Positions 41,832 through 59,119 of a DNA stretch of 64,000 bases are shown piece after piece. A program made the position numbers and the translations under genes. The stretch's first letter is position 1, and each line of letters starts with the position of its first letter. This stretch comes from Pyrinomonadaceae bacterium (GTDB lineage: Bacteria; Acidobacteriota; Blastocatellia; Pyrinomonadales; Pyrinomonadaceae): assembly GCA_036401595.1 (NCBI GenBank), contig DASWUM010000020.1, positions 4,784 through 68,783 on the forward strand. Reading direction: 5' to 3'. Under the pieces are notes generated by a model that did not search any database, had not been told where the DNA came from, and saw nothing but the letters and a program-made list of their open reading frames with translations.

Positions 41832-41834
41832 GTT

Positions 41835-42816: not shown

Positions 42817-42818
42817 TG

Positions 42819-43715: not shown

Positions 43716-44158
43716 TTACTGACAAAGTTATAACTGATGATTCCAGCCGCTTTTACCGTGCGATCTGAGATTTTCGTTGGAGAGTGACGCGACTGGCATG
43801 CGGCCTTGATGGATGGTTCCACTAACAACGGAGGGCCTTCAATAGCGTTGGCCCAAATGGTGCGGCCCTCTTCATCGATGACGATTTTTACCCGCACCAC
43901 GCCGGCGATTTTCTTCGCCTTTGCTTCTTCCGGGTAAGCAGGTTTTGGCAGGCTAATCGCTTTTCCGCAAAGCAGTGCGTCGAAGTTAGCGCGAGTCCCG
44001 ACCTCGGGCTGAGGCCGATCGGGCGTGACACAATCCTTTAGTCTCTGCGCGTCTGGGTCGTCAGGCGGGTGACCGCCCGTTTGAGCATCAGTTCGTTGCC
44101 CGATCGTCAGGTTAACAATCAGCGTGATCACGAAGAGGATGTGGAGGAGAATTTTCAT
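43712..44158 (-). CDS. TonB C-terminal domain-containing exported protein
   Basis: LPKPAYPEEAKAKKIAGVVRVKIVIDEEGRTIWANAIEGPPLL is the TonB_C pattern. It overlaps the MBL start by 4 nt. Confidence 0.7.
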   Translation of the reverse strand: MKILLHILFVITLIVNLTIGQRTDAQTGGHPPDDPDAQRLKDCVTPDRPQPEVGTRANFDALLCGKAISLPKPAYPEEAKAKKIAGVVRVKIVIDEEGRTIWANAIEGPPLLVEPSIKAACQSRHSPTKISDRTVKAAGIISYNFVSK

Positions 44159-44169
44159 ACGCGATCGCT

Positions 44170-44496
44170 TTACGGCGATTGCGTGAGGAAGTCTTCAATC
44201 AAACGACGGTCGTTTTCTTCTTTGATTCTGGTGAACAGTTTCGTCCCCAGTTTCCTGATCGTCGCGGGCTTATCGAACGGCAAGCGATCGTACATCTGCC
44301 CGCCACTAAAATGACACGGCATGCACTTCGATTGGAAGATTGGCTTTAACTGCGTTTCGAAATCCACCCGCGCTTTGACGGTTGAAGGTGTCACTACAGT
44401 CGCAGAGGCAACTTCCGGCCAGCGAGCGAACTTAACCGTCCCACCGGACTCAACCAGCAACAACCCGATCGCAATTAAGATCAGAACAACCCGCAT
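44170..44496 (-). CDS. small exported c-type cytochrome-like protein (PSCyt1-like CxxCH)
   Basis: LKPIFQSKCMPCHFSGG carries a CxxCH haem-binding motif in the context typical of the planctomycete cytochrome C domain. N-terminal TM/signal present. Confidence 0.55.
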   Translation of the reverse strand: MRVVLILIAIGLLLVESGGTVKFARWPEVASATVVTPSTVKARVDFETQLKPIFQSKCMPCHFSGGQMYDRLPFDKPATIRKLGTKLFTRIKEENDRRLIEDFLTQSP

Positions 44497-44637
44497 ACTC
44501 CCTAATGTTACTCCTTAAATCGGAGCAGTAAATAACAAAAAGTGACGAGTCGTTGCTGCCGGGTTGTGAAATGATGAACAACCCAGGTAGGGGGAGTCTT
44601 TCTATCACGCCGCCAAAGCGTCGGCTTGCATGAATTG

Positions 44638-45018
44638 TTACGGCATACGCTGGTATTGTGCAGCCCAATCCTTGAGCACCTTAATTCTTGCACTGGTGAA
44701 TTCTGACCAACAATTTAACCTGGCGTCTTCTCTTATCATCTCTTTGAAGTTCATCTCTGCTGTAAAAGCACAAGAGTCTTCTACGAATCTTCGCCAGGTG
44801 ATTTGAGATTTTTTTAGCAACGCCGCCGCGGCGGGGCGGTTTCTTGTTGAGAGGCTCTGATACAAAGGTTTGTAGGCGGAATTGAGATTTTTGTCGAGTT
44901 TGTCGTAGAGACAGACACGAACAGCATCCATTGTCAGTCCGGCCTGCTCGCAGTCCTGTGCGTTGACGGTGAACCCGACCGCGAGCATGAAGATGAAGGC
45001 AAAAGCAAAATTTTTCAT
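44638..45018 (-). CDS. DUF1311 (LprI-like lysozyme-inhibitor fold) exported protein
   Basis: I start the gene at MKNFAFAFIFMLAVGFTVNAQ (cat at 45016-45018, RBS aaggga). Conserved pattern C....C...LN.AYK.L......LKKSQITWRRFVEDSC. Confidence 0.7.
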   Translation of the reverse strand: MKNFAFAFIFMLAVGFTVNAQDCEQAGLTMDAVRVCLYDKLDKNLNSAYKPLYQSLSTRNRPAAAALLKKSQITWRRFVEDSCAFTAEMNFKEMIREDARLNCWSEFTSARIKVLKDWAAQYQRMP

Positions 45019-45085
45019 ATGCGCTCCCTTATTAAAAATCGGAATTAACCCCGTTTTGCCTGCGAAGGAATTGTTATGCCGGCGG

Positions 45086-46228
45086 CTAACGTATGAGGTT
45101 GTAAACATCTTTATCGGAAACAAGGAAAGCACGGCCAAGTCCGATAAACTTCATATCATGGAACCGAATCTCTGAGTTGACTCTGCTCCAGGTCTTTCCG
45201 CCATCTGTTGTTTCGTAGAGAAATCTATTGTCTCCGAGCGCCCAGCCGTGCTCCGCGTTGTCAAAGTGCATGGCTGTAAAAAGCTCCCATCCCGCTTCTT
45301 TAGTCGCCATCTGCTCTGGAGACATAACATCACACCAGTGTCGTCCGCCGTCGACACTCCTGATGACACCACCATCTTCATAGCCGATCCAAATCACTTT
45401 GAAGTCAAGCATGGCAAGAGTCAGTGGACTGATAGCATAGTCTTGCTCCACATACTCCCTGCGCACACAGCTTTTATTGAGTTCACTCGAATTCCAGGTA
45501 ACACCACCGTCATTGCTGCGATAGATAGCGAGATTGCCTAAGGCGATGCCTTGTTTCTCATTCGCGAATTGAATTCGCCTGATCCGGCCCCAGACGCCGT
45601 CGTTTAGAGACTTCTGCCACGTCTTCCCACCATCGGCGGTGTGAAAAATGGCTTCCACCAGCACGCGTTTTCCCGTTACATCTTTGGTATTGTTGGGAAC
45701 TCCAAACTTCAGTTCTTCTTTCGTCTGATCGCGGTAAAGGCCACCTGCAAGCCATCCGGACTTTCCGTCTGCAAGAAAGTACAACGATCTGATCTCGCCA
45801 TTTGGGCCCTCGAGTGGCGACGACTCATGGATCCAGGTGCGGCCACCGTCTTCAGTCTTATAGAGCCTGGAAAAGGAAAAGCTCCAACCAACCGCGGCAT
45901 TGGTGAAGTGGTAACCAAGAATTAGTTCATCACCCGGAGTGTGATAGATCTCCTGCCAATTCTTGCCCCCATCGACCGATTGCCACAGGATTTTTTGAGT
46001 GCTTAGCCAGCAGACCTGTTCATTCACACAATCGATCGAGAAATCGGGACGATCAGTGAGCGGCAGTTCGCCAACCTTCGATAGTCCCGGAGTGCTCGTG
46101 TTGCTTTCATTTTGGGTTGCAGATGACGCTGAATTACTCGAGTCCTTCGAGATTGTAGTGCCGGCGTTCGAGCAACCAGCAAAACAAAGCACACAGCTCA
46201 TCAGCAACCCAATGATTCTCGTCATCAC
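45086..46228 (-). CDS. lipoprotein with BNR/Asp-box repeats (Ycf48/sortilin-like beta-propeller)
   Basis: Lipobox CFAGCS. Six SxDxGxTW-type boxes: SVDGGKNW, TEDGGRTW, TADGGKTW, SNDGGVTW, SVDGGRHW and TTDGGKTW. Confidence 0.8.
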   Translation of the reverse strand: MMTRIIGLLMSCVLCFAGCSNAGTTISKDSSNSASSATQNESNTSTPGLSKVGELPLTDRPDFSIDCVNEQVCWLSTQKILWQSVDGGKNWQEIYHTPGDELILGYHFTNAAVGWSFSFSRLYKTEDGGRTWIHESSPLEGPNGEIRSLYFLADGKSGWLAGGLYRDQTKEELKFGVPNNTKDVTGKRVLVEAIFHTADGGKTWQKSLNDGVWGRIRRIQFANEKQGIALGNLAIYRSNDGGVTWNSSELNKSCVRREYVEQDYAISPLTLAMLDFKVIWIGYEDGGVIRSVDGGRHWCDVMSPEQMATKEAGWELFTAMHFDNAEHGWALGDNRFLYETTDGGKTWSRVNSEIRFHDMKFIGLGRAFLVSDKDVYNLIR

Positions 46229-46264
46229 ATTGTTAGGCTCATGTTTATGTGCCTGATGGCGCCA

Positions 46265-46380
46265 GAGTTAATCACAGCGACCTTCGTCAAATCGTGGTTG
46301 CCCACAGTGGACAATCTTCGCAACTTTTTTGCGACGCTACCGATAGAGATGCTCAGTTTCTTGCGACGGTGCCAGAAGTC
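46265..46380. repeat. att-like mosaic: left half resembles the tRNA-proximal junction (53303-53350), right half resembles the distal junction (50474-50540), around a diverged tRNA-3'-end-like core
   Basis: gagttaatcacagcgaccttcgtcaaatcgTGGTTGCCCACAGTGGAC versus gagttaattctagcgaccttcgtcatatcgTGGTAGCGCATACGGGAC (39/48 identical). Next, aatcttcgcaacttttttgcgacgctaccgatagagatgctcagtttcttgcgac versus aatcttcgcaactttttcctgtcgccatcggcagaaatgctcaggttcttgcaac. Confidence 0.75.
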
Positions 46381-46442
46381 GATGTAGGCATATAGTCGAT
46401 TCGAGTCTGCGGAACCTTTAACGTAACCAATGTCAATCGTTC

Positions 46443-47033
46443 TCAAATAACAACGACACTCTCGGTCGCGGGCGGGATATTGTGCATATCAAGAAGTGGT
46501 CTGGCGTCTGGCATAATAAGATTCCGCGGAATTGGTTCTCGACGCCAGAACCGTTGAAATACCTGTGGGCCACTCTCACCCGTCTCGATAGCATTGATTA
46601 GATAGCGGAAATCAGCCAGGAAAAATCGCGTATAGGCAACATCAAGCTCAACCGGTAGGTCGGGCTCAACCTCGCCCACCAAAGTTCTCCCTATCTCGGC
46701 TGCTTCATACTCATGGTCGTAAATGAGCTGAACATCGCGTGAGAAGAGTTCTTGACCGCGTCGTAACACAAGTGCGTTAGCCCGCTTTACGCGCTCGTTC
46801 ATGCCGGCGATTTGAGTCATGTGACCAAATAGATGGGCGACAGTGAACCAGAGCGCAAAGGGCGATGCGCTTTGAGGAAAGAGGGTTATCGTATGCCCTT
46901 CAAAGACTCCTATGAATCGGGCTTGATCAGAAGGAGGTACGGCGTCGAGAGTTGTCACCCCTAACCGTTCCACATACAAGCGTAACCGAGTCAGTTTTGC
47001 TGGAAACTCAGAACGACTTAGAAAATCATCCAT
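46443..47033 (-). CDS. ImmA/IrrE (DUF955)-like protein with degenerate metalloprotease motif
   Basis: FTVAHLFGHM aligns with the family signature FTLAHELGH, but the catalytic Glu is replaced by Leu. Length is 196 aa. Confidence 0.45.
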   Translation of the reverse strand: MDDFLSRSEFPAKLTRLRLYVERLGVTTLDAVPPSDQARFIGVFEGHTITLFPQSASPFALWFTVAHLFGHMTQIAGMNERVKRANALVLRRGQELFSRDVQLIYDHEYEAAEIGRTLVGEVEPDLPVELDVAYTRFFLADFRYLINAIETGESGPQVFQRFWRREPIPRNLIMPDARPLLDMHNIPPATESVVVI

Positions 47034-47229
47034 CGATAAAGTTCTCTCAAATAGAAGTGAACGGACTTAAATTAAACCATCCAGCAGCGCTTCGAAAACT
47101 AATTCGAGCGTTGTTCAAGGCGGTGCAATACGTCAAGTCAAACCCTGACAACGGTAACGCGCTCATCGGCTACGAAGGCCGTTTAATTATATTGAACTGC
47201 GAGTTGAAAGGCAGCGTTTTTTGAATCAA

Positions 47230-48408
47230 ATGCGGTCCACCCAAGCAAAACTTCTGAATTGTTTATGTGCGATGACAACGATTTTCCTCAGCTGTCTCGG
47301 TCCACATTGGCTGGCCCAGGAACTGTCCAAAGATCTTCCCGGGCGAGAGTGGAGAGATATGGTCGGTACGGATCTTTGGGGCAGCGACTGTAAGCCCGCT
47401 GAGAATCCCAAGGATGGTGCCCGCATTTGCAGGGGAGTCGAAGGTTATTCGCTCCTGATTAAAGGTGATGAGGTTGAGCGGGGGCTTTTCTTAGCGAAAC
47501 CGGAAATTTATTTGATTGCCCCGAATGGACGACACTATCCGCTGCGCTACTGGAATACCAGCGATCCCAAATATGAGGGGCTTCACCGTTCTGCATTATG
47601 GCTAATAGTAAATACGCCCAGAAAAACTATTACTCTTACATTCACCTTGAAAGTTGCGCAGAGGCAAGACTATTCGTACAGCGATTCTTACGACGTCATC
47701 GTAAGAGTTTCTCCAACTCCTGTTTGCATTGTTGGAAGCGTCGCCGGCAGTTCCACGTCGGCTGGTGAAAGTGTCGGGATCTCAAGCACTCCACGCGGAC
47801 GACCCTGTCTAAACCTGAATGAGTACGAAAAGCGGGATTGGTTTCTTACCGCGCGAAGACTGGCAAACGAAGGACAGATCAATGCTGCGAGGCGCTCGCT
47901 GAGGAGAGTTCGCGAACCTTCTGAACGCTTCATAGTGTATCGCGAAATGGCGAGCAGTCAGTTCAAGGCAGGTAATTCGGAAGCTGCTCGACGGATACTA
48001 ATCGGAGCGCGCGCGGAGGCGCTCAAAAGTCATTTTCGTGAGGGCCTAAACTACACACTGAGTAATGTCGTTAGCGGTCTGACAGAGTCGGGATTCTACG
48101 ATGCCGCAAAAGCAGACATCAGGCTCTTTCCTGATGCCGACAGGGTGCAAATGTATTTAACTGTTGCCTTCATCCAAGGCGAACGAAACGATCTCAATGC
48201 GGCCAAGAAAACCTTTCAAGAAGCAATTCAACGCGAAGTGAGGAAAAACGGTCCACACGCTGATTGGAGACTATATGAAATCGGTATGGCCCAAGCGCGT
48301 ATGGGACTGCTCGACGAAGCAAGAAAAACCGCTTCAATGATCCGTGATCCTTCACCTCGGCAGATGCTTGAAACCAGTATTAGGGAACGATCGGCAAAAC
48401 CAGAATAG
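47230..48408 (+). CDS. hypothetical exported protein with C-terminal TPR-like helical repeats
   Basis: Signal-like LLNCLCAMTTIFLSCLGPHWLAQ. The C-terminal half is alpha-helical repeats (AARRILIGARAEALK and LDEARKTASMI). The start is ATG 47230, or TTG 47221 as in the track. Confidence 0.55.
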   Translation: MRSTQAKLLNCLCAMTTIFLSCLGPHWLAQELSKDLPGREWRDMVGTDLWGSDCKPAENPKDGARICRGVEGYSLLIKGDEVERGLFLAKPEIYLIAPNGRHYPLRYWNTSDPKYEGLHRSALWLIVNTPRKTITLTFTLKVAQRQDYSYSDSYDVIVRVSPTPVCIVGSVAGSSTSAGESVGISSTPRGRPCLNLNEYEKRDWFLTARRLANEGQINAARRSLRRVREPSERFIVYREMASSQFKAGNSEAARRILIGARAEALKSHFREGLNYTLSNVVSGLTESGFYDAAKADIRLFPDADRVQMYLTVAFIQGERNDLNAAKKTFQEAIQREVRKNGPHADWRLYEIGMAQARMGLLDEARKTASMIRDPSPRQMLETSIRERSAKPE

Positions 48409-48560
48409 TTACGATTGTTATCATCCACGCCTGACGGCCGCTCGCTACCAGGACTTTACGCAAAAATCTACTTACTGAATAGTGCGTAGTTGTTGAAAGG
48501 ATGGTGGTAGCCCGGCTAGCGAGTCGGGTTGAATGACTTGTTGGATTTCGTCGGTAGATT

Positions 48561-48857
48561 CTAAATGCTCTTGCCATTACGCCCTTCGCTAAAATAGCGG
48601 TCGACGACGGCGACCAGATTTCGTAAATTCTCTTCGGTGCGAATCTGAGAATCCACTAGCGCATTGATTTTGACATTGACGTCATTGAATCCAACGTGCG
48701 TCACGCTGGCGAGGCGCGCGACGATCTCCCCAGTTTGGGCGACTACCTGGTCAGTTCGAGCTTGCGATTCCTGTAATTGCTGAATGTCGGAAGCAAACTG
48801 CGCTTGCTGCTCCACGATAAAGGCCATCTTTTTTTCGATTTCTTCGTTACTCATCAT
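48561..48857 (-). CDS. hypothetical small coiled-coil protein
   Basis: 98-aa ORF with heptad-like sequence (IVEQQAQFASDIQQLQESQARTDQVV). RBS ggagat lies upstream. Confidence 0.5.
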   Translation of the reverse strand: MMSNEEIEKKMAFIVEQQAQFASDIQQLQESQARTDQVVAQTGEIVARLASVTHVGFNDVNVKINALVDSQIRTEENLRNLVAVVDRYFSEGRNGKSI

Positions 48858-49270
48858 GAGGATCTCCTGTACTAATTGCAGAGAGTGTAACGAAGAGTCA
48901 CGTTAAGACCAAGCGTCGGCGTGAAATGAGTAGTTGGGCCGCACAGGGATCGAATCGAAATCACCAGGCGGTAGTTTTTCCATACGCCGTGACTGGCACT
49001 ATAGTTTGGCCGGAAGTGCGAATTGGAAGTTAATCGTGGCCGAAAGTACAGACCTTCAGGACGAGTAATTGTTCCTTTCACAATCCGCGAAGTCACAGAG
49101 CTATACTCTCACCCATGCCTTATAGACTTCAGCCGGATTTCCAAGCCCAAAGACTCGAAGAGAATGTCGAGCCGGATCGAACTATACCCAAAGCAGGGCC
49201 TTTCGGCGCTCAACTGTCCAAGGCTATAAGCTGCAGTTCTAACTACAGGCTCCGTACAAAAGAGGAACAT

Positions 49271-50347
49271 ATGAAGAGAATGTTGCTTTCGCTACTCGTG
49301 CTTTTGATATCAACAAACGCTTGGGCGCAACCGCCGCTCGATGCATTCATTGCCGGCTATGCCAAGGCACACAATTTCAATGGCACGATCCTGGTCCAAA
49401 AGAACGACAAAGTCATTTACTCGAGCAGTTTCGGACTGGCGAACTTTCGCTTCGATGTTCCCAATACGGTGCAGACCAAATATCGCATCGCTTCGATCAC
49501 AAAGGTGTTCACTTCGGTTCTCGTCTTGCAGCTTCAAGAGCAAGGACTGCTTGATCTCAATAAGACCATCAAGACGTACCTACCCGACTACACCGGCCCT
49601 GCCGCTGACAAGGTGACCCTGCATCAACTGCTGAATCACACATCCGGTATCGAAAATATGGACAAGGTGAAGAGCGCAGACGAGGCAATAAGAATTGGCC
49701 TGCCGGCGTACCAGTTGCCACACACCGCTGACCAACTGTTGACCCAGTTCGCCAGCGGCGCGTTGGTGCATACGCCCGGCACCGTGTTCGATTATAACAA
49801 CGCCGACTACATCATTCTGGGCAAAATCATCGAGCGTGTATCCGGTAAGACCTACGATCAGGTCCTGAAAGCCCAGATCCTGCAACCGCTGGAAATGATG
49901 GACACCGGCATGCCGTATCAGCACAACATCATCCACGGCCTGGCCGATACCTATTTCTTTCGCGAGGACCTCGGCACCCTCGTACCCGACCTGCCCCACT
50001 ATCCAGAAAACTGGTACGCCGCCGGCGGCCTGTACTCGACAGTCAATGACCTGCTGAAATTTTCCAACGCACTGTTCGGTGAGAAGCTGCTGAAAAGGGA
50101 CTCACTCACTCGCATGATCAAACCGGGGCTCGACGACTATGGCTATGGACTGTGGTCGTATGAGACCAAAATAGGCGGCAAGAAATATCGCGTCGTTAAG
50201 CGGCCAGGGCAGATTATGGGCGCGCAGAGTCAGCTTTATCACTTTATGGACGCAGCGGTGACGGTGATCATGCTGAGCAACACGGGAACTACCGATCTCG
50301 ACCAGTTCGTAGCGGAGATCGGTAAGCGAGTCGTTAACAATCCTTAG
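49271..50347 (+). CDS. serine hydrolase, beta-lactamase class C / penicillin-binding protein family, exported
   Basis: I start the gene at MKRMLLSLLVLLISTNAWAQ (RBS agagga). SxxK motif in RIASITKVFTS, and YNNADY matches the YxN motif. Confidence 0.8.
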   Translation: MKRMLLSLLVLLISTNAWAQPPLDAFIAGYAKAHNFNGTILVQKNDKVIYSSSFGLANFRFDVPNTVQTKYRIASITKVFTSVLVLQLQEQGLLDLNKTIKTYLPDYTGPAADKVTLHQLLNHTSGIENMDKVKSADEAIRIGLPAYQLPHTADQLLTQFASGALVHTPGTVFDYNNADYIILGKIIERVSGKTYDQVLKAQILQPLEMMDTGMPYQHNIIHGLADTYFFREDLGTLVPDLPHYPENWYAAGGLYSTVNDLLKFSNALFGEKLLKRDSLTRMIKPGLDDYGYGLWSYETKIGGKKYRVVKRPGQIMGAQSQLYHFMDAAVTVIMLSNTGTTDLDQFVAEIGKRVVNNP

Positions 50348-50459
50348 CAGCGGAGCCAAGCCCCGGTCTTGCACCGAAGGGATTGCCTGAAAACAAGCGG
50401 GCTAAAATCCTGATTATGGACCTAAGGTTGGCCGCAATGTTTGGAACTAAATAGAAAGT

Positions 50460-50477
50460 TGGTAGCGCATACGGGAC
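50460..50477. repeat. 18-bp exact direct repeat of the tRNA-Glu 3' end (distal att site)
   Basis: tggtagcgcatacgggac at 50460-50477 is identical to 53333-53350. That sequence is ACCA plus the acceptor and T-stem 3' strand of the tRNA, read on the plus strand. Confidence 0.9.
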
Positions 50478-50611
50478 AATCTTCGCAACTTTTTCCTGTC
50501 GCCATCGGCAGAAATGCTCAGGTTCTTGCAACAGCTGAGAGAGGCGGTCTAGTCCGGCAAGTCGAAATCGACCTCAAAGCCATTTTTAGAGGCATAGATT
50601 AATAACCCTAT

Positions 50612-50740
50612 TTAGGCAAGTTCAATGAATGAGCGCAGAACGTCTTGGGCCAGCACATGTTGTTCCAAGACGAGACGCTTAAACTCTTCAAGCTTGCCAT
50701 CAGGGATTTTGAGTCTAGCGACACATTGAAGTTCGCTCAT
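50612..50740 (-). pseudogene. truncated antibiotic-biosynthesis-monooxygenase (ABM)-like gene fragment (42 codons)
   Basis: My translation is MSELQCVARLKIPDGKLEEFKRLVLEQHVLAQDVLRSFIELA*. The first ~25 residues resemble the N-terminus of about 100-aa ABM/quinol monooxygenase proteins (ARFKI..GKLEEFK). RBS ggaagt. It is below the track's size cutoff. Confidence 0.35.
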
Positions 50741-50838
50741 TGCTCTTACTTCCGGTTCTTATCTCAAGACGTTGGATATCTAGCCGCGCCGCCTAACGAC
50801 CTGACGTTAACCTGCGGGCGCACCAGCGCCAGTCAGTT

Positions 50839-51549
50839 TCAAGGTCCGGTTAGCCAGCCGCCTCCCACATGTGCGATGAGGTCCGGTTCGGCCAGCAGAA
50901 CGTTGCGCATGAAATAGGACAGGTCAGCACAGAACGCCAGGAAACCCTCCTCGCCCACAGTTATCTGACCGTCAAACGCGACGTAGGCACCAGACTCGAG
51001 AATCAAAGCGCAATCAGGACGCCGGTCATCACGCGTGTCGGCCATCCGTTTCTTGAGTGAATCCACCGACGCGAAACCTTTGAATCCGACGGCAACCATC
51101 GGGATCCTCGAGACGCTCGGTCCAACCTCACTGAAACCCGAGGTTGGATCGATCTGGAGGTGCCTCCGCCATTTGCGTCGGAGCGGGTGCAACTTAGCCG
51201 TTGTTTCCTCGACTTGCGACCACTGAGCAGCTAAGTCCGACTTGACCTCTCCGACGCAAGCGACCGACTCCGCGAGATAGAGGCGCTCGCCTCCTCCTGG
51301 CGCGGGAAAGCTTGCGAAAAACGGGAACTCCACGACGACATCGAGCTGGCCGGTGGTCAGACCAGCTGCGTCTGCGATTGCACCACTGCCGAAACGGTAT
51401 GGCAAAGGAAAGACACGCTCGAGAAACTCCCGCACGAGGGTCTCCCGCTCGCCTCCCTTTGCAGCGTTTGGAAGGAGGGCGGATGCCCTGTGATGGGCCA
51501 TTAGGATCTCGCGAATCCCGCGCAAGCGAGCTCTGAGGGCTTCGTTCAC
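50839..51549 (-). CDS. PD-(D/E)XK nuclease-fold protein, DUF6602-like
   Basis: GGERETLVREFLERVFPLPYRFGSGAIADAAGLTTGQLDVVVEF...LYLAESVACVGEVKSDL follows the DUF6602 layout: G..RE...FL...LP, GsG.I.D..G..S.Q.D.V, then ExK. Confidence 0.6.
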   Translation of the reverse strand: MNEALRARLRGIREILMAHHRASALLPNAAKGGERETLVREFLERVFPLPYRFGSGAIADAAGLTTGQLDVVVEFPFFASFPAPGGGERLYLAESVACVGEVKSDLAAQWSQVEETTAKLHPLRRKWRRHLQIDPTSGFSEVGPSVSRIPMVAVGFKGFASVDSLKKRMADTRDDRRPDCALILESGAYVAFDGQITVGEEGFLAFCADLSYFMRNVLLAEPDLIAHVGGGWLTGP

Positions 51550-51693
51550 GAACTTCTCCGTCTGGGCTAACGTTGCGCTTCACCGGCTCGCCCACGCAAC
51601 TACTAATAAAGGCTACTCACCGGCGAGTCCGCTGCAAGCGCTTGTTCGGCGCTGCGTGAAAACATCGGCGCAAGACAATGGCAAAGCCGCCCC

Positions 51694-52629
51694 TTACTTT
51701 CGACCGCGTTGTCCATGACACGCTCCATATCTTTTTCCAGAGCCACAGGGGCAACGTTCCTTACGCCGGACGCGAGGAATCCAAGCTGGCGAAGCCGCCT
51801 CCTTCTCACGCACTTTTGCCAGCTTGGTAAAACGACCATATACGGGTCGACCAGGCTGAGCTGCGTTTATGAAATCTGGAACGAAAGCTTCATCGGTCGG
51901 TATAGACGTATTGAACCACAACTCAATCTCTCGAGTTTCGTCATGAGGAATTATTATCCCGCTAACTTGCATTCCTATTGTTTGCCCTTCTCTTTCGGAG
52001 GAAGCCTCTCTTAGTAAACCAGCGGCCATCTCAGCCACAGTCTTCGCCGGCTTTTGATTCTTCAAGGCAGCCTCAATACGAATGGCCCGTCTCTCCCGAA
52101 GTGCCTGCCACGCACCGATCCTTTGAACGCATATTGAGGTTTGCGAAGTGGGGTCGGCCACCTTCCATCGCATAATTCGAAATTCTTTCCACGCCTCAGG
52201 ACTGTCAATTCGGGTTTCGAAGTCCTGAAAGTTGCTAATTAACGCTAATCGACTTATTGGGGGTCGTTCATTTGTGACGCCCGCAATCAATATTGTGAGT
52301 CGTTGTTGCCGTGAGGACATTGGCATGATTGCAGGATGGCTGCCAAAGGTAGTTGCTGCCTCTCGTGCGAGACCGCTCGGAATACCAAGATACGTTGGGT
52401 CACCTGCAGCGGCGCGCACTGCGCTCTTAAGGATCCAATCTCGTGTAACGAAAGTTCGATCTTGTGAATAGGCTAGTCCGGCGTATGCGACTCCGAAACG
52501 ACCATCTCTCGTATGCACCGCCAGAAGCTTGTTGGAATGCTCAGTGACAGGAATTCCCGCCTCAGTTAAACGCTGATCCGCCAAAACAATTGTGTACGAA
52601 GGGCCTTGTATGCTCAGTGCTAGTGTCAT
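51694..52629 (-). CDS. hypothetical protein with proteasome/HslV-like (Ntn-hydrolase) N-terminal pattern and C-terminal SEC-C zinc motif
   Basis: The C-terminal CPCGSGKRYGACHG is a canonical SEC-C motif. The N-terminus MTLALSIQGPSYTIVLADQRLTE...NKLLAV...GVAYAGLAYS...LTILIAGV parallels HslV [21 protein letters not shown]...KKV...AGFAGGTADA (Thr1, Asp17, Lys33 positions). Confidence 0.5.
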   Translation of the reverse strand: MTLALSIQGPSYTIVLADQRLTEAGIPVTEHSNKLLAVHTRDGRFGVAYAGLAYSQDRTFVTRDWILKSAVRAAAGDPTYLGIPSGLAREAATTFGSHPAIMPMSSRQQRLTILIAGVTNERPPISRLALISNFQDFETRIDSPEAWKEFRIMRWKVADPTSQTSICVQRIGAWQALRERRAIRIEAALKNQKPAKTVAEMAAGLLREASSEREGQTIGMQVSGIIIPHDETREIELWFNTSIPTDEAFVPDFINAAQPGRPVYGRFTKLAKVREKEAASPAWIPRVRRKERCPCGSGKRYGACHGQRGRK

Positions 52630-52830
52630 GAATCTCTGTATTAATTCGAAAGCGCCGAACTTTGTGCATCTTGATCTGGATAAGATCGCGAAGTGTTCTT
52701 TAGCAGTTCCTTTTCCTTCCTTATAAACCAGCGGTCACGTTTCGGTAATCCGTCTGTCCATAGCGCTTTTGACTTATCAAACAAACTTTCTCTATTATCC
52801 GCTTCCGAATAAAATCGGCTTTGCGAGGAC

Positions 52831-53170
52831 TCAATGCGGGTCCGCCGGACTTCTGACGACCTTCTCTACTCGGTTCAAGACGTGCTTGTAAATCATCGAC
52901 GTTTCAAAGTGCTTATGTCCTGAATTCGGTTATTGAATATGAGATTCATCAGCGCCTGAGGAACGTTTCGAGAACGATATGCAATTGCTAACACCGGTTC
53001 ACCAGCACTGTCAATAGCACCTCATCACACAACGTCACCACAGAGGGATGGCTGCTTGATCGAACGACACATTCCCAGATCGAAATTATTCAGCTTGCGG
53101 GATCTAGAAGGAACGATTGTGGAGTTCTGATAAATTAGTGCGTCTGTCCCAAACCGACCGCGTCTGATCT
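52831..53170 (-). pseudogene. decayed tyrosine recombinase/integrase (C-terminal catalytic region only, multiple in-frame stops)
   Basis: My reverse-strand translation reads ...GADESHIQ*PNSGHKHFETSMIYKHVLNRVEKVVRSPADPH*. This parallels integrase C-termini (..GADIRTIQELLGH.D..TTMIYTHVL..GG.GV.SP.D). Upstream in the same frame: FRSGNVSFD (compare LRW.DVDFD) and further stops. It lies adjacent to the tRNA. Confidence 0.65.
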
Positions 53171-53332
53171 CAAACAATCAGATTGACATGATAGTTGTCG
53201 CGAAGTCATACCTTCCTCAAAGCTGAAGGAGTTTTTCTTTCTGCTGAGGCTTGAGTGTCCTTGCAATTACTAACACGAGTTGGCAAAAAGAAAAGGCCGC
53301 TGGAGTTAATTCTAGCGACCTTCGTCATATCG

Positions 53333-53409
53333 TGGTAGCGCATACGGGACTCGAACCCGTGGTCTCTGCCTTGAGAGGGCAGCGTGTTAGCCGACTACAC
53401 CAATGCGCC
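53333..53409 (-). tRNA. tRNA-Glu (anticodon CUC), CCA encoded
   Basis: The reverse complement GGCGCAT-TG-GTGT-AGTCGGCTA-ACAC-G-CTGCC-CTCTCAA-GGCAG-AGACC-ACGGG-TTCGAGT-CCCGT-ATGCGCT-A-CCA folds into a 77-nt cloverleaf. The anticodon loop is C-T-CTC-A-A. Confidence 0.9.
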
Positions 53410-53643
53410 GCAGCGGACTGGCATTATAGGTTTGCCGCAGGGCGGTTCGCAAGCTACAGGTGACGCCATCTGCATAATCTGCGGATAACCGTAAATTTGC
53501 TATACTGCACGCGCTTCAAGCTAGCTGATCCCCACGAACGTGACTAATTAGTCGTCTATGCCAAAATCCGGAGTTGTTGGCGGGCACAAAGCGCGAGAAC
53601 TTCACCTCCCCTTTTCTTACTTTTCCTGCAAACGGAGCTTGCT

Positions 53644-54786
53644 ATGAAGATCGTTGTGTTGCGGGAGACACAAGAGGGTGAGGCACGCGTGGCGCTCATG
53701 CCTGAGTCGGTCAAGAAACTCGTCGCGCTCGGTGCTGTGGTCCAGGTCGAGAGCCGCGCAGGACTGAACGCCGCGCGCACCGATGACGAGTATCGCGAAG
53801 CCGGCGCCGAAATAAGTGCTGACCGGGAAGCGTTGCTGGCTGACGCCGACGTTCTTCCGGTTGTAAATCGTCCTACGGCCAACGACTTCGCACGGCTCAA
53901 GAAAGGCGCTGTCGTCATCGGCTTTTTGCGACCACTCGACGAACCCGTCGCGCTTCTGCCCGCAGTCGATCGCGGTATCACGACTTTCTCAGTCGAACTC
54001 ATTCCGCGAATCACGCGCGCACAGGCAATGGACGCGCTCTCGTCAATGGCGACCGTCGCTGGTTACAAAGCCGTGCTGATCGGAGCTACTCACATTCCGC
54101 GCATGTTTCCACTCTTGATGACTGCTGCCGGCACTGTGCCGCCTGCGCGTGTTCTCGTGCTCGGCGCGGGTGTCGCAGGCTTACAGGCGATCGCGACTGC
54201 CCGACGGCTCGGAGCAGTTGTCGAAGGCTACGACGTGCGTGCTGCCGCGGGTGAACAGGTGAAATCGCTGGGCGCCACGTTTCTCGAAGTCGATCTCGGT
54301 GGAATCAAAACTGAAGACGCAGGTGGTTACGCAGTCGAGCTTTCAGACGAGGCGATGAATCGTGGCCGCGCGTTGATTGCCGAGCACGCCAAGAGCGCCG
54401 ATGTCATCGTCACGACCGCACAGGTGCCGGGCCGAAAAGCTCCATTGCTCATCACTGAAGAAGCAGTAAATGGAATGAAGCGCGGCTCGATCGTTATCGA
54501 TCTTGCCGGCGCGACCGGTGGCAACTGCGCGTTCAGCCAGGCAGACGTAGTCGTTGAACGCGATGGCGTAACGATCATGGCGCCCACGAATCTGGCGGCA
54601 ACGGTTCCGGTTCACGCCAGTCAGCTTTACTCGCGCAACCTCACCTCATTCCTGACGCCGCTGATCAAAGATGGACAATTGCAGATCGACATGAAGGACG
54701 ACGTAGTTGGACCATCGTGCGTCACGCACAACGGCGAGGTCGTTAACCAGCGCGTCGCAGCGGCATTGCAGGCTCAACCAGGTTAG
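53644..54786 (+). CDS. pntAA: NAD(P) transhydrogenase subunit alpha part 1
   Basis: MKIVVLRETQEGEARVALMPESVKKL, the NAD-binding VLVLGAGVAGLQAIATARRLGA, and the gene order with pntAB and pntB. Confidence 0.9.
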   Translation: MKIVVLRETQEGEARVALMPESVKKLVALGAVVQVESRAGLNAARTDDEYREAGAEISADREALLADADVLPVVNRPTANDFARLKKGAVVIGFLRPLDEPVALLPAVDRGITTFSVELIPRITRAQAMDALSSMATVAGYKAVLIGATHIPRMFPLLMTAAGTVPPARVLVLGAGVAGLQAIATARRLGAVVEGYDVRAAAGEQVKSLGATFLEVDLGGIKTEDAGGYAVELSDEAMNRGRALIAEHAKSADVIVTTAQVPGRKAPLLITEEAVNGMKRGSIVIDLAGATGGNCAFSQADVVVERDGVTIMAPTNLAATVPVHASQLYSRNLTSFLTPLIKDGQLQIDMKDDVVGPSCVTHNGEVVNQRVAAALQAQPG

Positions 54787-54799
54787 GAGCGAAACTCGG

Positions 54800-55102
54800 A
54801 TGTCATCAGATGCATTAATCTCTGCGCTTTACGTGTTCGCGCTCGCAGCGTTTCTGGGCTACCAGGTGATCTCGCGTGTGCCGCCGCTGCTGCACACGCC
54901 TTTGATGTCGGCGACGAATGCAATCTCGGGTATTTCTCTCGTCGGTTCGATCGTCACGGCCGGTGCGCGCTACAACACAGTCAGCACGATTCTCGGTTTC
55001 ATCGCAGTTGTTTGCTCGACCACAAACGTCGTCGGCGGTTTTGTGATCACAGATCGCATGTTGAAGATGTTCAAGCGGAAAGAGATTGCCAAGAAGGAAT
55101 AG
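54800..55102 (+). CDS. pntAB: NAD(P) transhydrogenase subunit alpha part 2 (membrane)
   Basis: I start the gene at MSSDALISALYVFALAAFLGYQVI (atg at 54800, RBS aggagc). HTPLMSATNAISGI is the conserved motif. Confidence 0.9.
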   Translation: MSSDALISALYVFALAAFLGYQVISRVPPLLHTPLMSATNAISGISLVGSIVTAGARYNTVSTILGFIAVVCSTTNVVGGFVITDRMLKMFKRKEIAKKE

Positions 55103-55117
55103 CCACAGATCTCACGG

Positions 55118-56503
55118 ATGCAAACCTACTTCATCGAACTCAGCTACCTGCTCGCTTCAATCTTCTTCATCCTCGGATTGAAGGGAATGAGCCATCCCGA
55201 AACGGCGAAGCGCGGTATGCACCTCGCCGAGTTTGGCATGTTGATGGCGATCATCGGCACGCTGATGCATCACGAGATCGTCACCTACACGTGGATTCTC
55301 GCCGGTCTCGCAGTAGGTTCTGTTGTCGGACTCGCGATGGGCTTGTGGGTGCCGATGACGGCGATGCCGCAACGAACCGCGCTCTCACACGCGTTCGGCG
55401 CTTTCGCCGCAGCACTCGTCGGTATTTCCGAGTTTTATCGAGTCTATTCGGCGGGCGGCCATCTCGAGAAGATCACGATGGGCGCGCTCGGTTTCGAAGT
55501 GATGCTCGGTGCGCTCACAACTACCGGGAGCCTCCTCGCATTCGCAAAACTTCAGGGACTCGTACGCGGCACGCCGATGACCTACAAGGGCCAGAATGTT
55601 TTCAACATGGTCCTGCTCGCCGTCACGATTGGAATCTTTGTCTATCTCGTCTTCTTCCCGGCTTCGATGCCGCTCTTTTTCACGATGGTAGGTTTCGCAT
55701 TCATCTTCGGACTGTTGCTGGTGATGCCAATCGGATCGGCTGACATGCCGGTCGTTATGTCGCTGCTGAACTCGTACGCCGGTCTCGCTTCGGCAGCAAC
55801 TGGATTCGTCCTTTCAAACAAAGTGCTGATCATCGCGGGCACGCTCGACGGTTTTTCCGGATTCATACTCTCGATCTTGATGTGCCGGGCGATGAATCGC
55901 TCGATGACGAATGTTCTGTTCGGTGCGTTTGGAAGTGTGACCACTGCCGCAGCGGGCGGCGAGCAGCATGGAACGATGCGCGAGGTTGGACTTGAAGACA
56001 TCGCCACGCAACTCGCTTACGCGAACAAAGTCGTCTTCGTGCCGGGTTATGGTCTTGCGACCGCGCAGGCACAACACGCAGTGCGCGAACTCGCAGATGT
56101 GCTCGAGAAACGCGGCGTCACAGTCAAATACGGAATTCATCCGGTCGCAGGGCGAATGCCGGGACACATGAACGTTTTGCTTGCCGAAGCGAACGTCCCT
56201 TATTCGTCGCTGTACGAGCTCGAGCAAATCAATCCTGAATTTCCGAGCACTGATGTTGCAGTCGTGATCGGCGCAAACGACGTCGTCAATCCTGACGCGC
56301 GCGACAATCCCGGCAGCCCGATTGCCGGCATGCCGATTCTTGAAGTTGATCGATCGAAGTCAGTGGTCGTCTTGAAGCGTGGCCAGGGCAAAGGTTTTTC
56401 CGGTCTCGAGAACCCTTTGTTTTTTAAGCCCGTAACAGGCATGCTCTATGGCGATGCGAAAGACACGTTGACTCGACTCGTTCAAGCCGTGCAACACGCA
56501 TAG
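55118..56503 (+). CDS. pntB: NAD(P) transhydrogenase subunit beta
   Basis: Multi-TM N-terminus and C-terminal dIII motifs PGYGLATAQAQH, GIHPVAGRMPGHMNVLLAEA and VIGANDVVNP. Confidence 0.95.
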   Translation: MQTYFIELSYLLASIFFILGLKGMSHPETAKRGMHLAEFGMLMAIIGTLMHHEIVTYTWILAGLAVGSVVGLAMGLWVPMTAMPQRTALSHAFGAFAAALVGISEFYRVYSAGGHLEKITMGALGFEVMLGALTTTGSLLAFAKLQGLVRGTPMTYKGQNVFNMVLLAVTIGIFVYLVFFPASMPLFFTMVGFAFIFGLLLVMPIGSADMPVVMSLLNSYAGLASAATGFVLSNKVLIIAGTLDGFSGFILSILMCRAMNRSMTNVLFGAFGSVTTAAAGGEQHGTMREVGLEDIATQLAYANKVVFVPGYGLATAQAQHAVRELADVLEKRGVTVKYGIHPVAGRMPGHMNVLLAEANVPYSSLYELEQINPEFPSTDVAVVIGANDVVNPDARDNPGSPIAGMPILEVDRSKSVVVLKRGQGKGFSGLENPLFFKPVTGMLYGDAKDTLTRLVQAVQHA

Positions 56504-56527
56504 CCACAAAAGGCACAAGAAACACAA
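56502..56527. repeat. CACAAAA-flavour repeat with AGCCAC cap fused to the pntB TAG stop
   Basis: tAGCCACAAAAggCACAAGAaaCACAA. Confidence 0.7.
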
Positions 56528-56542
56528 TTTTCTGGAGACTGC

Positions 56543-58189
56543 ATGCGAAGATTCTTAACCGCACTTGTATTGGCGAGCGCACTCGTCACTACGCTTCCTG
56601 TAACCCACGCCCAACGCGCTGCTGCTGTTAAATCAAAAAAGATTGGCTCGTCTGTAATCACGCAACGTGGCGTCGACACGATTGCCGCCAATCAAATGAG
56701 AGACTATTTGACCTTCATCGCCTCCGACGAAATGGAGGGACGCGATACGCCGTCTCGCGGACTCGACACTACCGCGAAGTTCCTCGCGATGAATCTCACG
56801 CGTTGGAACTTCAAACCGGCCGGCGACAACGGCACCTTTTTTCAACGCATTGAGCTGAATCGCAATCGAGCCGACAGCGGTCAAACAAAAGTCGAGCTCA
56901 ACGGCAAAGCATTAACGGCGGGAACGGATTTTCTTCCGGGAAGCGGCTCTGGAAATGTTTCGGGACAACTGGTCTTCGCAGGCTCAGGTTGGTTTGTTAA
57001 GTCGAAAGACATTGACGCTTACAAGGGTATCGATCCAAGAGGACGAATTGTGGTGATCGCCGGAGTTCCAAACATGCCCCCCCGCGGCGTAGCGCGTGCC
57101 GACTATGGCAAGTACGGCGAAGAATCGATGAACCCGAGTGATTACGCGCGCAGCAAGGGTGTTGTCGGATTGATTTACATAGCTGATTCTCAATACGTCA
57201 CAAACTGGCAACGCAATCGTGCGCGCATGGAGCGCGGCTCGACAGTCGTCGCGAGGTTTCAAACGCAGTCCACCACGCCCGTTTTGCCGTCAATCGTGAT
57301 CACTCCCGAGACTGCAACGGCACTCTTCGCTGGCGAAGCACAAACACTTTCTGAATCGACACAACCGTTCCTGTTGAGCGAGCAGAAGAAAGTCAGCATG
57401 AACATTGCCAACAGCAATCAGATCATTCCCACGCAGAACGTCGTCGCTGTTTGGGAAGGCAGCGATCCGACTCTGAAGGCTGAATACGTCGCGCTGGGCG
57501 CACATTACGATCACGTTGGCAGCGGCTGTCCGCCGTCCGGCACCGACACAATTTGCAATGGCGCGGATGACGACGGTTCGGGTACGACTGCTCTGCTCGC
57601 GATGGCCGAGGCACTCTCCAAGGCGCCGGCGCGTCCGAAACGTTCGGTGTTGTTTGTCTGGCATTGCGGCGAAGAAAAAGGCTTGTGGGGCTCGCGCTAC
57701 TTCACCGAGTATCCGACTGTGCCACTCAATCAGATCGTGGCGCAAATCAATATCGATATGATCGGACGAAGCAAGAAGGAAGGCGACACAAACTCGCGCA
57801 ACTCTGAGCTAACCGGACCGGATGCGGTTTACCTGATTGGCTCAACGATGATGAGCACCGAGCTTGGTGAGCTTGTCAATAACGTCAACAAGTCGTACCT
57901 GAATATTACCTTTGATACGAAGTACGACGATCCGAAGGATCCAAACCGGTTCTTCTTCCGAAGCGATCATTACAACTACGCGCGCAAAGGGATTCCGATC
58001 ATCTTCTTCTTTGATGGCGTGCACGAAGACTATCATCGTCCCGGAGACACGGCTGACAAGATCGACTACCAGAAGATGGAGAAGATCACGCGCACGGTTT
58101 ACATGACGTTGTGGGAGATTGGAAACAGGCCGGCGCGATTGAAGGTGGATAAGCCGCTGCCGGCTCAGATAACAGGTAGCACGGATTAA
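56543..58189 (+). CDS. M28 family metallopeptidase (aminopeptidase), exported
   Basis: Signal peptide. LGAHYDHVG, GADDDGSGTTALLAMAEAL, WHCGEEKGLWGS and SDHYNYARKGIP are M28 zinc-site motifs. Confidence 0.85.
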   Translation: MRRFLTALVLASALVTTLPVTHAQRAAAVKSKKIGSSVITQRGVDTIAANQMRDYLTFIASDEMEGRDTPSRGLDTTAKFLAMNLTRWNFKPAGDNGTFFQRIELNRNRADSGQTKVELNGKALTAGTDFLPGSGSGNVSGQLVFAGSGWFVKSKDIDAYKGIDPRGRIVVIAGVPNMPPRGVARADYGKYGEESMNPSDYARSKGVVGLIYIADSQYVTNWQRNRARMERGSTVVARFQTQSTTPVLPSIVITPETATALFAGEAQTLSESTQPFLLSEQKKVSMNIANSNQIIPTQNVVAVWEGSDPTLKAEYVALGAHYDHVGSGCPPSGTDTICNGADDDGSGTTALLAMAEALSKAPARPKRSVLFVWHCGEEKGLWGSRYFTEYPTVPLNQIVAQINIDMIGRSKKEGDTNSRNSELTGPDAVYLIGSTMMSTELGELVNNVNKSYLNITFDTKYDDPKDPNRFFFRSDHYNYARKGIPIIFFFDGVHEDYHRPGDTADKIDYQKMEKITRTVYMTLWEIGNRPARLKVDKPLPAQITGSTD

Positions 58190-58196
58190 CGCGGAT
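58180..58196. repeat. two phased units (CACGGATtaaCGCGGAT) spanning two convergent stop codons
   Basis: gCACGGATTAACGCGGAT contains the TAA of the M28 gene (58187-58189) and the stop of rsmI (58186-58188, minus strand). Confidence 0.6.
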
Positions 58197-59028
58197 TTTT
58201 AAGAACGATTAACTGTCGGTAAGCTTCGGCGCGTGAGAGACCTAACTCACGCGCCGCTTTCTTTAGGGCGGCGCGGTGGTCGAGGCCGTCCTGTTCGTAC
58301 TTGTCGACCAGGGTCGCGATGCTCATTTCCGGCTTACTCGCGACGCCGATCACGTTGCGATCGATCAGCACCACGATTTCTCCGCGAATATCGCTCTTCT
58401 GATCCGCATAATCGGCGGCCAGTTCGCTCAAACGTCCACGCCTGATCTCCTCGTGAAGTTTTGTCAGTTCCCTAGCGACGACGGCTTCTCGTTCGCCTAA
58501 AACTTCGAGTGCATCCTTGAGTGTTGCCGCGAGTCGATGTGGCGCTTCGTAGAAGATCAGTGTACCCGGCACTGATTGCAGCTCACTTAGGCGTGTTCGA
58601 CGTGCGTTCGTCCGCGAGGGAAGAAAGCCCGCGAAGAAAAACTCATCAGTCGGCAGGCCGGCCGCGATCAATGCAGAGATTAGTGCGCTTGGACCAGGCA
58701 CTGGCACCACCGTGATGTCCTTTTCAATCGCCGCTCGAACAAGACGAAAGCCAGGATCGCTGATGGACGGCGTGCCCGCGTCGGAAACAACCGCGATATT
58801 GTTGCCCTGTTGCAACTGCTCGACTAGCTGCGTCGCGCGTTGTTGCTCGTTGTGATCGTGATAGCTGAGCGTTTTGGTTTTGATGCCGTAGTGATTGAGG
58901 AGTTTGTTTGTATGTCGCGTGTCTTCGCAGGCGATCAGATCGACGTCCTTGAGGATCTGCACTGCGCGGTGCGTGATGTCTGCAAGATTGCCGATAGGAG
59001 TCGCGACGAGATACAGGGTTCCAGGCAT
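58186..59028 (-). CDS. rsmI: 16S rRNA (cytidine1402-2'-O)-methyltransferase
   Basis: MPGTLYLVATPIGNLADITHRAVQILKDVDLIACEDTRHT is the hallmark RsmI N-terminus. Length is 280 aa. Confidence 0.9.
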   Translation of the reverse strand: MPGTLYLVATPIGNLADITHRAVQILKDVDLIACEDTRHTNKLLNHYGIKTKTLSYHDHNEQQRATQLVEQLQQGNNIAVVSDAGTPSISDPGFRLVRAAIEKDITVVPVPGPSALISALIAAGLPTDEFFFAGFLPSRTNARRTRLSELQSVPGTLIFYEAPHRLAATLKDALEVLGEREAVVARELTKLHEEIRRGRLSELAADYADQKSDIRGEIVVLIDRNVIGVASKPEMSIATLVDKYEQDGLDHRAALKKAARELGLSRAEAYRQLIVLKNPR

Positions 59029-59119
59029 GGAGACATATTAAGAGATAAAAGGCCCCGGCGTAGAGCCGAGGCCTTTGGCAGGATTGACCAGCAGGTTACA
59101 AGCGGAAGTCAGATGCAGG

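Follow-up and report, generated by a model that had tools for sequence, protein, structure and literature searches.

A predicted proteasome-like hydrolase with a SEC-C tail and an orphan NucC-family nuclease, neighbours in a tRNA-Glu islet of a Pyrinomonadaceae bacterium

In a 64,000-nucleotide stretch of a Pyrinomonadaceae genome (assembly GCA_036401595.1, contig DASWUM010000020.1, positions 4,784 to 68,783; hereafter the window), a 2.9-kb islet at a tRNA-Glu gene carries two adjacent genes, A and B. An earlier sequence-only reading had proposed that these genes form a novel two-gene defence system in which a threonine-protease-like protein is coupled to a restriction-fold nuclease. Our analysis supports both fold assignments and argues against the coupling. 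The islet, which has no integrase, probably holds two unrelated single-gene modules lying next to each other, gene A encoding a proteasome-like protein with a role in genetic conflict and gene B an orphan NucC-like nuclease. The interest of the locus rests on the family of gene A, and not on the pair. A listing of open reading frames (ORFs) recovered both genes intact and co-directional on the minus strand, at the coordinates first claimed for them and with every motif quoted at the time. The features of the genes and of the islet, in window coordinates, are:

51694..52629, minus strand: gene A, 311 aa, ATG start, MTLALSIQGPSYTIVLADQRLTEAGIPVTEHSNKLLAVHTRDGRFGVAYAGLAY ... ERCPCGSGKRYGACHGQRGRK; predicted proteasome-beta/HslV-like N-terminal nucleophile (Ntn) hydrolase with a C-terminal SEC-C zinc motif
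51835..52629, minus strand: predicted protease domain of gene A (about residues 1-265), with Met1-Thr2, Asp18, Lys34, Gly51, Asn133, Phe150, Gly172 and Gly219
51712..51765, minus strand: SEC-C motif of gene A (residues 289-306, CPCGSGKRYGACHG), with CxCx8CH zinc ligands; Pfam PF02810
50839..51549, minus strand: gene B, 236 aa, GTG start, with GQLDVVVEF and CVGEVKS; predicted orphan NucC-family (DUF6602) PD-(D/E)xK endonuclease
51241..51342, minus strand: putative catalytic core of gene B, from Asp70 (QLDVVVE) to Glu101-Val-Lys103 (GEVKS), with NucC-like spacing
53333..53409, minus strand: tRNA-Glu(CUC), found with ARAGORN; its 3' 18 nt (53333-53350) are one direct-repeat copy of the islet
50460..50477, no strand: second exact copy of the tRNA 3' 18 nt, the distal boundary of the 2.9-kb islet holding A and B
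52630..53332, no strand: low-GC (0.45) non-coding stretch from gene A to the tRNA, with no supported ORF of 60 aa or more
46260..46367, no strand: third, diverged att-like junction with a degenerate tRNA 3' fragment at 46295-46312, bounding an older islet at 46295-50459

Predicted structure and residue conservation support gene A as a proteasome-beta/HslV-like Ntn hydrolase; the assignment is drawn from these two sources because sequence-only tests stay below threshold. An AlphaFold2 model built on a 118-sequence alignment reached a predicted local distance difference test (pLDDT) score of 95.5 and a predicted template-modelling (pTM) score of 0.93, and its strands and helices follow the order S1-S5/H1-H2/S6-S9/H3-H4/S10-S11 expected of an alpha-beta-beta-alpha sandwich (S1-S11, H1-H4). 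Searched against the Protein Data Bank (PDB) with Foldseek, the model gave 551 matches at E<=1e-3, with a target-normalised TM score of up to 0.69, and the top 50 listed were all 20S proteasome subunits at probability 1.00. Proteasome beta subunits and their homologues use a Thr1/Asp17/Lys33 catalytic triad with Gly47 in the oxyanion hole (PMC8665760). Thr2, Asp18 and Lys34 of gene A become Thr1, Asp17 and Lys33 once Met1 is lost, the gene A glycine corresponds to Gly47, and the Asp18 and Lys34 columns are in register with D17 and K33 of HslV and beta subunits. Across the family, of the 116 members aligned at the position right after Met, 113 have Thr and 3 have Ser, and residues ahead of the aligned Met occur in only 2 of 118. 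Asp18 is kept in 117/118 sequences and both Lys34 and Gly51 in 118/118, while Arg19/Arg20, Asn133, Phe150, Gly172 and Gly219 are likewise near-invariant or invariant in this alignment. An Ntn assignment first made by eye is in this way supported by a confident model, by the Foldseek matches and by a conserved triad.

Several points weigh against this assignment. The residue counts come from an alignment composed mostly of matches that align from residue 1, and about 10% of the top gene A representatives carry N-terminal extensions in the called genes. Gene A itself has no PF00227 match at E<=1, and only 7 of 75 family members match Pfam Proteasome in a scan to E<=1, with a best E of 0.009 that is below threshold. 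Once SEC-C matches are set aside, the family profile finds only beta subunits in the PDB, N-terminally aligned at E 0.2-0.8, with the SDRRL/K columns in register. An hhalign comparison with E. coli HslV, using an approximate sequence, placed M1T2, D18 and K34 in register at a probability of 5.8%. Finally, the structures of A and B are both predictions.

The C-terminal tail is the one part of gene A that models recognise: the only Pfam match is SEC-C at residues 289-306 (E 4.5e-6, 26.9 bits against a cut-off of 20.4), where the sequence-only reading had placed it, and NCBIfam, PHROGs and PADLOC give nothing beyond it. The same region matches SecA C-terminal peptides in the PDB (E 2.6e-4). Among its zinc ligands, C293, C295 and C304 are present in 118/118 sequences, and position 305 is His in 113 and Cys in 5.

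For gene B, sequence and model together support a PD-(D/E)xK nuclease that is homologous to NucC over its full length. The DUF6602 layout noted earlier was recovered by Pfam (PF20247, E 1.8e-14, 54 bits against a cut-off of 27), and PADLOC matched the protein to a CRISPR-associated (clustered regularly interspaced short palindromic repeats) PD_DExK profile (1.2e-15) and to NucC effector profiles (2.5e-10). Against PDB sequences, phmmer found Serratia and E. coli NucC at 7.6e-6 and 2e-3. An AlphaFold2 model built on 46 homologues has a pLDDT of 92.8, and all 14 of its Foldseek matches in the PDB at E<=1e-3 are NucC chains, the best at E 1.8e-13 with TM scores of 0.75/0.73 over about 245 aligned columns, which span the whole protein. 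Foldseek thus returned an Ntn fold for the model of A and a PD-(D/E)xK fold for that of B, as anticipated from the letters. The active-site motif of NucC is IDx30EAK, with Asp73, Glu104 and Lys106 (bioRxiv 10.1101/694703); gene B reads L-D70-x30-E101-V-K103 with equal spacing, and in its family (46 homologues) D70 and K103 never vary and E101 is conserved at 90% or more. The residues of NucC that bind its activator, cyclic tri-adenylate (cA3), show no clear conservation in a HMMER sequence alignment: Arg53 falls on Pro50, with an invariant Arg52 two residues later, Tyr81 falls on Phe78, and Thr226 is unaligned. By sequence alignment only, the gate-loop latch residues His136 and Tyr141 correspond to Pro135 and Ser140, and it is in the gate-loop segment that the gene B family varies most.

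Gene B also appears to lack the usual genomic partners. PADLOC found no CD-NTase or Cas10 cyclase among the 54 ORFs of the window, and there is no cyclase among the 25 most frequent of the 122 Pfam families in 150 ORFs flanking 41 gene B homologues in GTDB genomes. No conserved neighbour accompanies the family across these 41 loci. Since there is no cyclase nearby, no conserved neighbour and a pattern of hidden Markov model (HMM) matches like that of the single-gene system Damona (discussed below), gene B is best read as an orphan, stand-alone NucC-family nuclease. A search of plasmids with gene B gave no match. Four loci from metagenome-assembled genomes (MAGs) of Verrucomicrobia and Chlamydiales (L042, L048, L050 and L051) hold the B-family gene in a syntenic block with 4-6 common neighbours; the other loci have unrelated neighbours.

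The sequence-only reading had joined the two genes into one defence or abortive-infection system. In such a system the threonine protease would sense infection and activate or license the NucC-like nuclease, or would itself serve as a second effector. Several observations favour such a coupling and weigh against two independent modules: the genes lie on the same strand, 144 nt apart, with no terminator predicted in the gap; the islet that an exact 18-nt repeat bounds holds no other gene of substantial size; and a gene B with no cyclase partner would need some other regulator. In addition, A-type genes often directly precede varied effector-like genes (DUF2971/PDC-S31, HEPN_LA2681, a restriction endonuclease), so a constant module with swappable effectors is conceivable. 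In this one genome, A and B may be locally co-expressed or may cooperate functionally.

Co-occurrence across genomes points the other way. No match to the A profile lies near any of 41 gene B-family loci (0/41, up to about 6 kb either side; 34-61% identity to gene B, from diverse phyla), and a B-type gene is present in 1 of 11 gene A contexts, the window only. The pair recurs on a single other contig, L008, which is identical to window positions 41694-59985 with 0 mismatches in 18,292 nt; this identity marks it as the same genome and not an independent observation of the pair. Several A genes (L055, L058 and L071) have no co-directional downstream partner at all, and the genes downstream of A elsewhere are single-gene systems in their own right, known or candidate. 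Composition separates A from B as well. Gene A has a GC content of 0.511 and a third-codon-position GC content (GC3) of 0.436, whereas gene B has 0.599 and 0.650, a GC3 gap of 0.21; with bulk genes of the window at a GC3 of 0.638 +/- 0.029, gene A is compositionally foreign, about 7 standard deviations off the host value, and gene B is host-like. Because of the co-occurrence counts (0/41 and 1/11) and the GC3 difference, the evidence argues that A and B are independent single-gene modules placed side by side by chance adjacency, and not a co-evolved system; a two-gene system is in our view improbable. The case also carries a caution, in that two adjacent accessory genes in a tiny islet do not amount to a system without co-occurrence data. 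The accompanying claim that no system of this composition had been described stands for the pair. As to the components, the nuclease resembles Damona, and diverse orphan proteasome homologues have already been catalogued (PMC8665760).

The boundaries of the islet are well defined. The 3' 18 nt of the tRNA (TGGTAGCGCATACGGGAC) have 2 exact matches in the window against an expectation of 0.02, and 0 of 100 shuffles gave 2. The exact repeat at the tRNA and at 50460-50477 therefore places A and B in a direct-repeat-bounded segment of 2.9 kb, in the style of a tRNA-integrated element, and the two genes are its only sizeable ORFs, in agreement with the earlier description of them as the only intact cargo. 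Six-frame Pfam scans of 52630-53332 and 50478-50838 found no integrase, transposase or other remnant; the former stretch gave a single weak match at chance level (SAM_EPH, E 0.15). Just downstream of gene B, inside the islet at about 50600-50730 on the minus strand, lies a 42-aa ORF (MSELQCVARLKIPDGKLEEFKRLVLEQHVLAQDVLRSFIELA) that is also called in L008 and has no family match. Repeat and motif searches showed that the arms flanking the degenerate tRNA fragment at 46295-46312 are 79% and 78% identical to 53298-53332 and 50478-50532. The older, adjoining islet (46295-50459) carries a beta-lactamase-family gene, a tetratricopeptide-repeat (TPR) protein and small ORFs. This arrangement suggests that related elements integrated one after another and left two islets in tandem (46295-50459 and 50460-53350), both now lacking an integrase.

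The family to which gene A belongs is large. An exhaustive HMMER search returned 646 representatives at E<=1e-3, of which 374 reach E<=1e-10; almost all are 300-315 aa long and align end to end, so that the family comprises at least 646 clusters that are uncovered by Pfam, NCBIfam and PADLOC models apart from the SEC-C tail. A word-index search found few relatives (4 with the single sequence, 9 with the family profile), and very few of the members looked up have a source recorded at NCBI. One relative, the 188-aa protein P0002 on an ENA contig of 2457 nt, matches gene A at 91-92% identity through its first 156 residues, after which its sequence is unrelated; it looks like a frameshifted or decayed copy in a related organism. 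Another, in a Phycisphaerae MAG (L010:8001-8981, GCA_021736615.1), is a 326-aa product with a 16-residue extension before the conserved Met-Thr. The start has probably been called wrongly, so that the annotation would mask the N-terminal nucleophile.

More distant relatives are found in phages and on a plasmid. Among predicted viral structures, the best match of gene A is a 289-aa uncharacterised protein of Gordonia phage Nymphadora (E 1.2e-16, TM 0.67/0.71, 303 columns), a far better match than the canonical proteasome-like phage proteins. In tblastn searches of phages and plasmids, a consensus-like family member matched a 295-aa hypothetical protein of the mobilizable plasmid pJCM17324 of Mycobacterium marseillense (L077:1381-2268), encoded next to a recombinase, and otherwise gave mainly SEC-C-only matches. 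The family profile aligns to this plasmid protein with an hhalign probability of 99% (E 9e-18). The plasmid protein is in turn 35.5% identical, over its full length, to gp30 of six Gordonia phages (nine records). The family HMM scores the plasmid and phage proteins at about 1e-21 to 1e-22 (hmmsearch); both start (M/V)TL...QVSDRRLT...K...GFTGIA and both are without the SEC-C tail. In Nymphadora, gp30 (L078:4501-5370) is reverse-oriented, right after the tail genes and about 3.5 kb from a tyrosine integrase. In temperate actinophages this position is often occupied by accessory or defence genes that are expressed in the lysogen.

We inspected by hand 11 informative genomic contexts of gene A and its relatives, which are summarised below.

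Window: DUF6602 gene (gene B) downstream of gene A
L001-7: mobile element with DUF3854/DUF3631, DUF5131 and an insertion sequence (IS); no partner gene
L010: DUF2971 gene downstream, matching PADLOC candidate PDC-S31 (2e-61)
L012 (1-10660): 504-aa HEPN_LA2681 gene directly downstream; type II cyclic-oligonucleotide-based antiphage signalling system (CBASS; SMODS cyclase, Cap2 E1/E2, JAB) about 6 kb upstream
L013: small unknown genes only
L055-57: housekeeping neighbours, MsrAB and type IV pilus/type II secretion system (T2SS) genes
L058-59: divergent TIR/bSEFIR gene
L060: unknown genes and HSDR_N_2
L071-72: RelE/MqsA-like toxin-antitoxin genes
L073-75: metallophosphatase gene, type II methyltransferase (MTase) and restriction endonuclease (REase)
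L076: ArdC-N, resolvase and DUF3631 genes, with the A homologue between ArdC-N/MPTase, resolvase and DUF3631

Known or candidate defence genes are directly adjacent to the A gene (in L012, for CBASS, within about 6 kb) in 5 of these 11 contexts, a small sample with no control. The A-family gene of L012 is in a clear defence island. DUF2971, the downstream neighbour in L010, has by itself been reported as the single-gene antiphage system Aristaios (PMC11381338). L073:7001-11119, L074 and L075 share one gene order: the A gene, then a metallophosphatase-family gene, an N6/N4 methyltransferase and one more gene, among which PADLOC identifies a type II MTase (1.7e-65) and a type II REase (1e-60). 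Across these settings the family behaves like an accessory gene that stands alone and moves horizontally, at home in defence islands and on mobile elements, and for this reason a role in genetic conflict, be it defence or an element-borne counter-measure, is the most likely one for gene A. Some of the evidence runs counter to this role: the contexts have no background control, in L055 all the neighbours are housekeeping genes, and in the window a stretch of about 14 kb upstream of the pair and 11 kb downstream of it contains no further known defence gene. Farther away, in window positions 1-36000, one ORF matches PADLOC candidate PDC-S03 (four models, best E 4.4e-32) and two match RT_UG21 (5.8e-11), none of them within about 14 kb of the pair.

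The housekeeping context, with MsrAB and type IV pilus/T2SS genes, would fit a different role for gene A, that of an accessory protease for proteostasis or secretion quality control, self-compartmentalising like HslV or Anbu, which its SEC-C tail would bring to ribosomes or SecB to clear stalled or mislocalised nascent chains. The metal-binding domain of SecA interacts with both SecB and ribosomes, and its motif is also found in YecA, YchJ and some methionine aminopeptidases (10.1101/613315). The fully conserved catalytic site suggests a real protease, and chaperone-independent clearance roles have been proposed for the newly described proteasome homologues, for most of which no AAA+ partner was found (PMC8665760). 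A housekeeping factor sits poorly, however, with a family that is patchy in distribution and has few word-index relatives, with a codon composition that is foreign in this genome, and with genes found in a tRNA islet, on mobile elements, and beside toxin-antitoxin, restriction-modification, CBASS or TIR genes, and with homologues in phages and plasmids. We regard this role as unlikely.

Alternatively, gene A could be cargo that serves the mobile element itself as an anti-defence, exclusion or addiction factor, for example as a protease acting against a host defence protein, in which case its defence neighbours would reflect shared integration hot-spots. The settings of L076 (ArdC-N, resolvase, DUF3631) and L001-L003 (DUF3854/DUF3631, DUF5131, IS) are of this kind, as are the homologue beside a recombinase on a mobilizable Mycobacterium plasmid and gp30 of the six Gordonia phages, in an accessory slot between tail genes and integrase; phages are also known to spread several proteasome homologues (PMC8665760). 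Direct searches of mobile elements count against this view: a family-A DNA pattern that recognises 9 known family loci had 0 matches in 2.9 million viral contigs, and tblastn with gene A found none in phage and plasmid collections. Moreover, the phage and plasmid relatives are without the SEC-C tail, so their function may differ, and the actinophage slot, which often holds prophage defence genes, fits defence equally well. Element-serving cargo of this kind seems to us doubtful, and we keep to the reading of two unrelated modules in which gene A is a conflict gene.

Under this preferred reading, gene A would encode a protein of the roughly 305-aa type with a propeptide-less Ntn domain of the proteasome-beta/HslV kind, a short beta-rich extension and a SecA-type SEC-C zinc knuckle. 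Methionine aminopeptidase removes Met ahead of small P1' residues. In gene A this processing would take off Met1 and expose Thr1, which, with Asp17, Lys33 and a glycine oxyanion hole, may cleave a peptide or amide bond, as the conservation of these residues suggests. Transpeptidation, as in the connectase branch, would be an alternative chemistry. The SEC-C tail most likely would dock the enzyme on a partner, as it does for SecA. Gene B would form a NucC-like oligomer with an intact Mg-dependent D...ExK site that, once activated, may degrade double-stranded DNA non-specifically and lead to abortive infection. Because there is no local cyclase, its trigger could be a signal made elsewhere in the genome, or one that is not a nucleotide. 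A more specific proposal is that family A constitutes a so far unrecognised, stand-alone conflict system. An active proteasome-like threonine protease, which SEC-C would bring to a partner such as ribosomes or SecB, would then be enough by itself as an anti-phage or anti-defence effector; we put this forward tentatively, as a possibility with fairly low odds.

Bacterial proteasome homologues are far more diverse than HslV, yet hardly any of them has been given a function or lies in an informative genomic setting. The gene A family has intact catalytic residues and a SEC-C docking motif, and its genes turn up singly in defence islands and toxin-antitoxin loci, on integrative elements and plasmids, and in phages; work on it could reveal for the first time what an orphan branch of proteasome homologues does. 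As an orphan proteasome homologue, it stands out for its invariant SecA-type zinc tail and its recurring conflict-type context, and we did not find such a protease in the literature available to us. If the stand-alone conflict system were true, family A would provide the first case of a proteasome-family member that serves bacterial immunity. Gene B poses a question of its own, namely how NucC-type effectors are regulated in isolation, for this NucC-fold nuclease consistently occurs with no cyclase.

Among known systems, gene B is closest to NucC, the cA3-activated nuclease of type III CBASS and type III CRISPR (PDB 6p7p, 6q1h, 6uxf and 7zgv), with which it shares the full-length fold (TM 0.75/0.73), a similar size (236 aa versus about 241) and the same motif spacing (LDx30EVK versus IDx30EAK). 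The two are only 18-20% identical, and gene B, unlike NucC, has no CD-NTase or Cas10 in the window. We set aside gene B as a canonical CBASS or type III CRISPR NucC, as no cyclase is present. Another parallel is Damona, a single-gene DUF6602 anti-phage cassette of the Vibrio cholerae chromosomal integron (bioRxiv 10.1101/2024.07.02.601686). Compared by domain and match pattern only, both are stand-alone DUF6602 proteins matched by Cas PD_DExK and CBASS small-endonuclease profiles; the gene B clade occurs in soil-type Acidobacteriota-like genomes, whereas Damona belongs to Vibrio integrons.

The zinc knuckle of gene A resembles those of the SecA tail, YecA and YchJ in its CxCx8CH ligands, a conserved Ser and a Gly-Lys-Lys-Tyr context. 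In YecA, YchJ and some methionine aminopeptidases the SEC-C motif has been read as a ribosome-targeting device (10.1101/613315). In gene A it is joined to a proteasome-like hydrolase, and no such fusion was found in the literature searched. The antiphage protein Rugutis also has a SEC-C motif, though at its N-terminus and with a fold unrelated to that of gene A.

With proteasome beta subunits, HslV and their orphan homologues, gene A shares the predicted Ntn fold and a triad and glycine oxyanion hole at canonical positions. It differs from beta subunits and HslV in its length (about 310 aa versus about 200 and about 175) and in an insertion with the invariant Asn133 and Phe150. Membership of HslVU was rejected, given 311 aa against about 175 and no HslU-type unfoldase listed beside A in the 11 contexts; the only nearby AAA-type ATPase, in L055, lies about 4 kb from A inside a pilus/secretion operon. 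Gene A has more in common with the non-canonical homologues surveyed by Fuchs, Alva and Lupas in 2021, who described 22 new proteasome-like subfamilies of unknown function (PMC8665760). Like them it has no propeptide, and like the orphan homologues it has no AAA+ partner and an extra C-terminal region. Its invariant SEC-C motif, however, sets it apart from the survey homologues, and the text of the survey mentions neither SecA nor SEC-C nor zinc (PMC8665760). One surveyed subfamily, the Distant Actinobacterial proteasome Homolog (DAH; for example WP_085249540.1), occurs in actinobacteria, other bacteria and phages and has an extra C-terminal domain (PMC8665760). The SEC-C-less clade formed by the pJCM17324 protein and Gordonia gp30 matches DAH, a match made by published description only. 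Because this clade fits that description, gene A may be a SEC-C-tailed relative of DAH.

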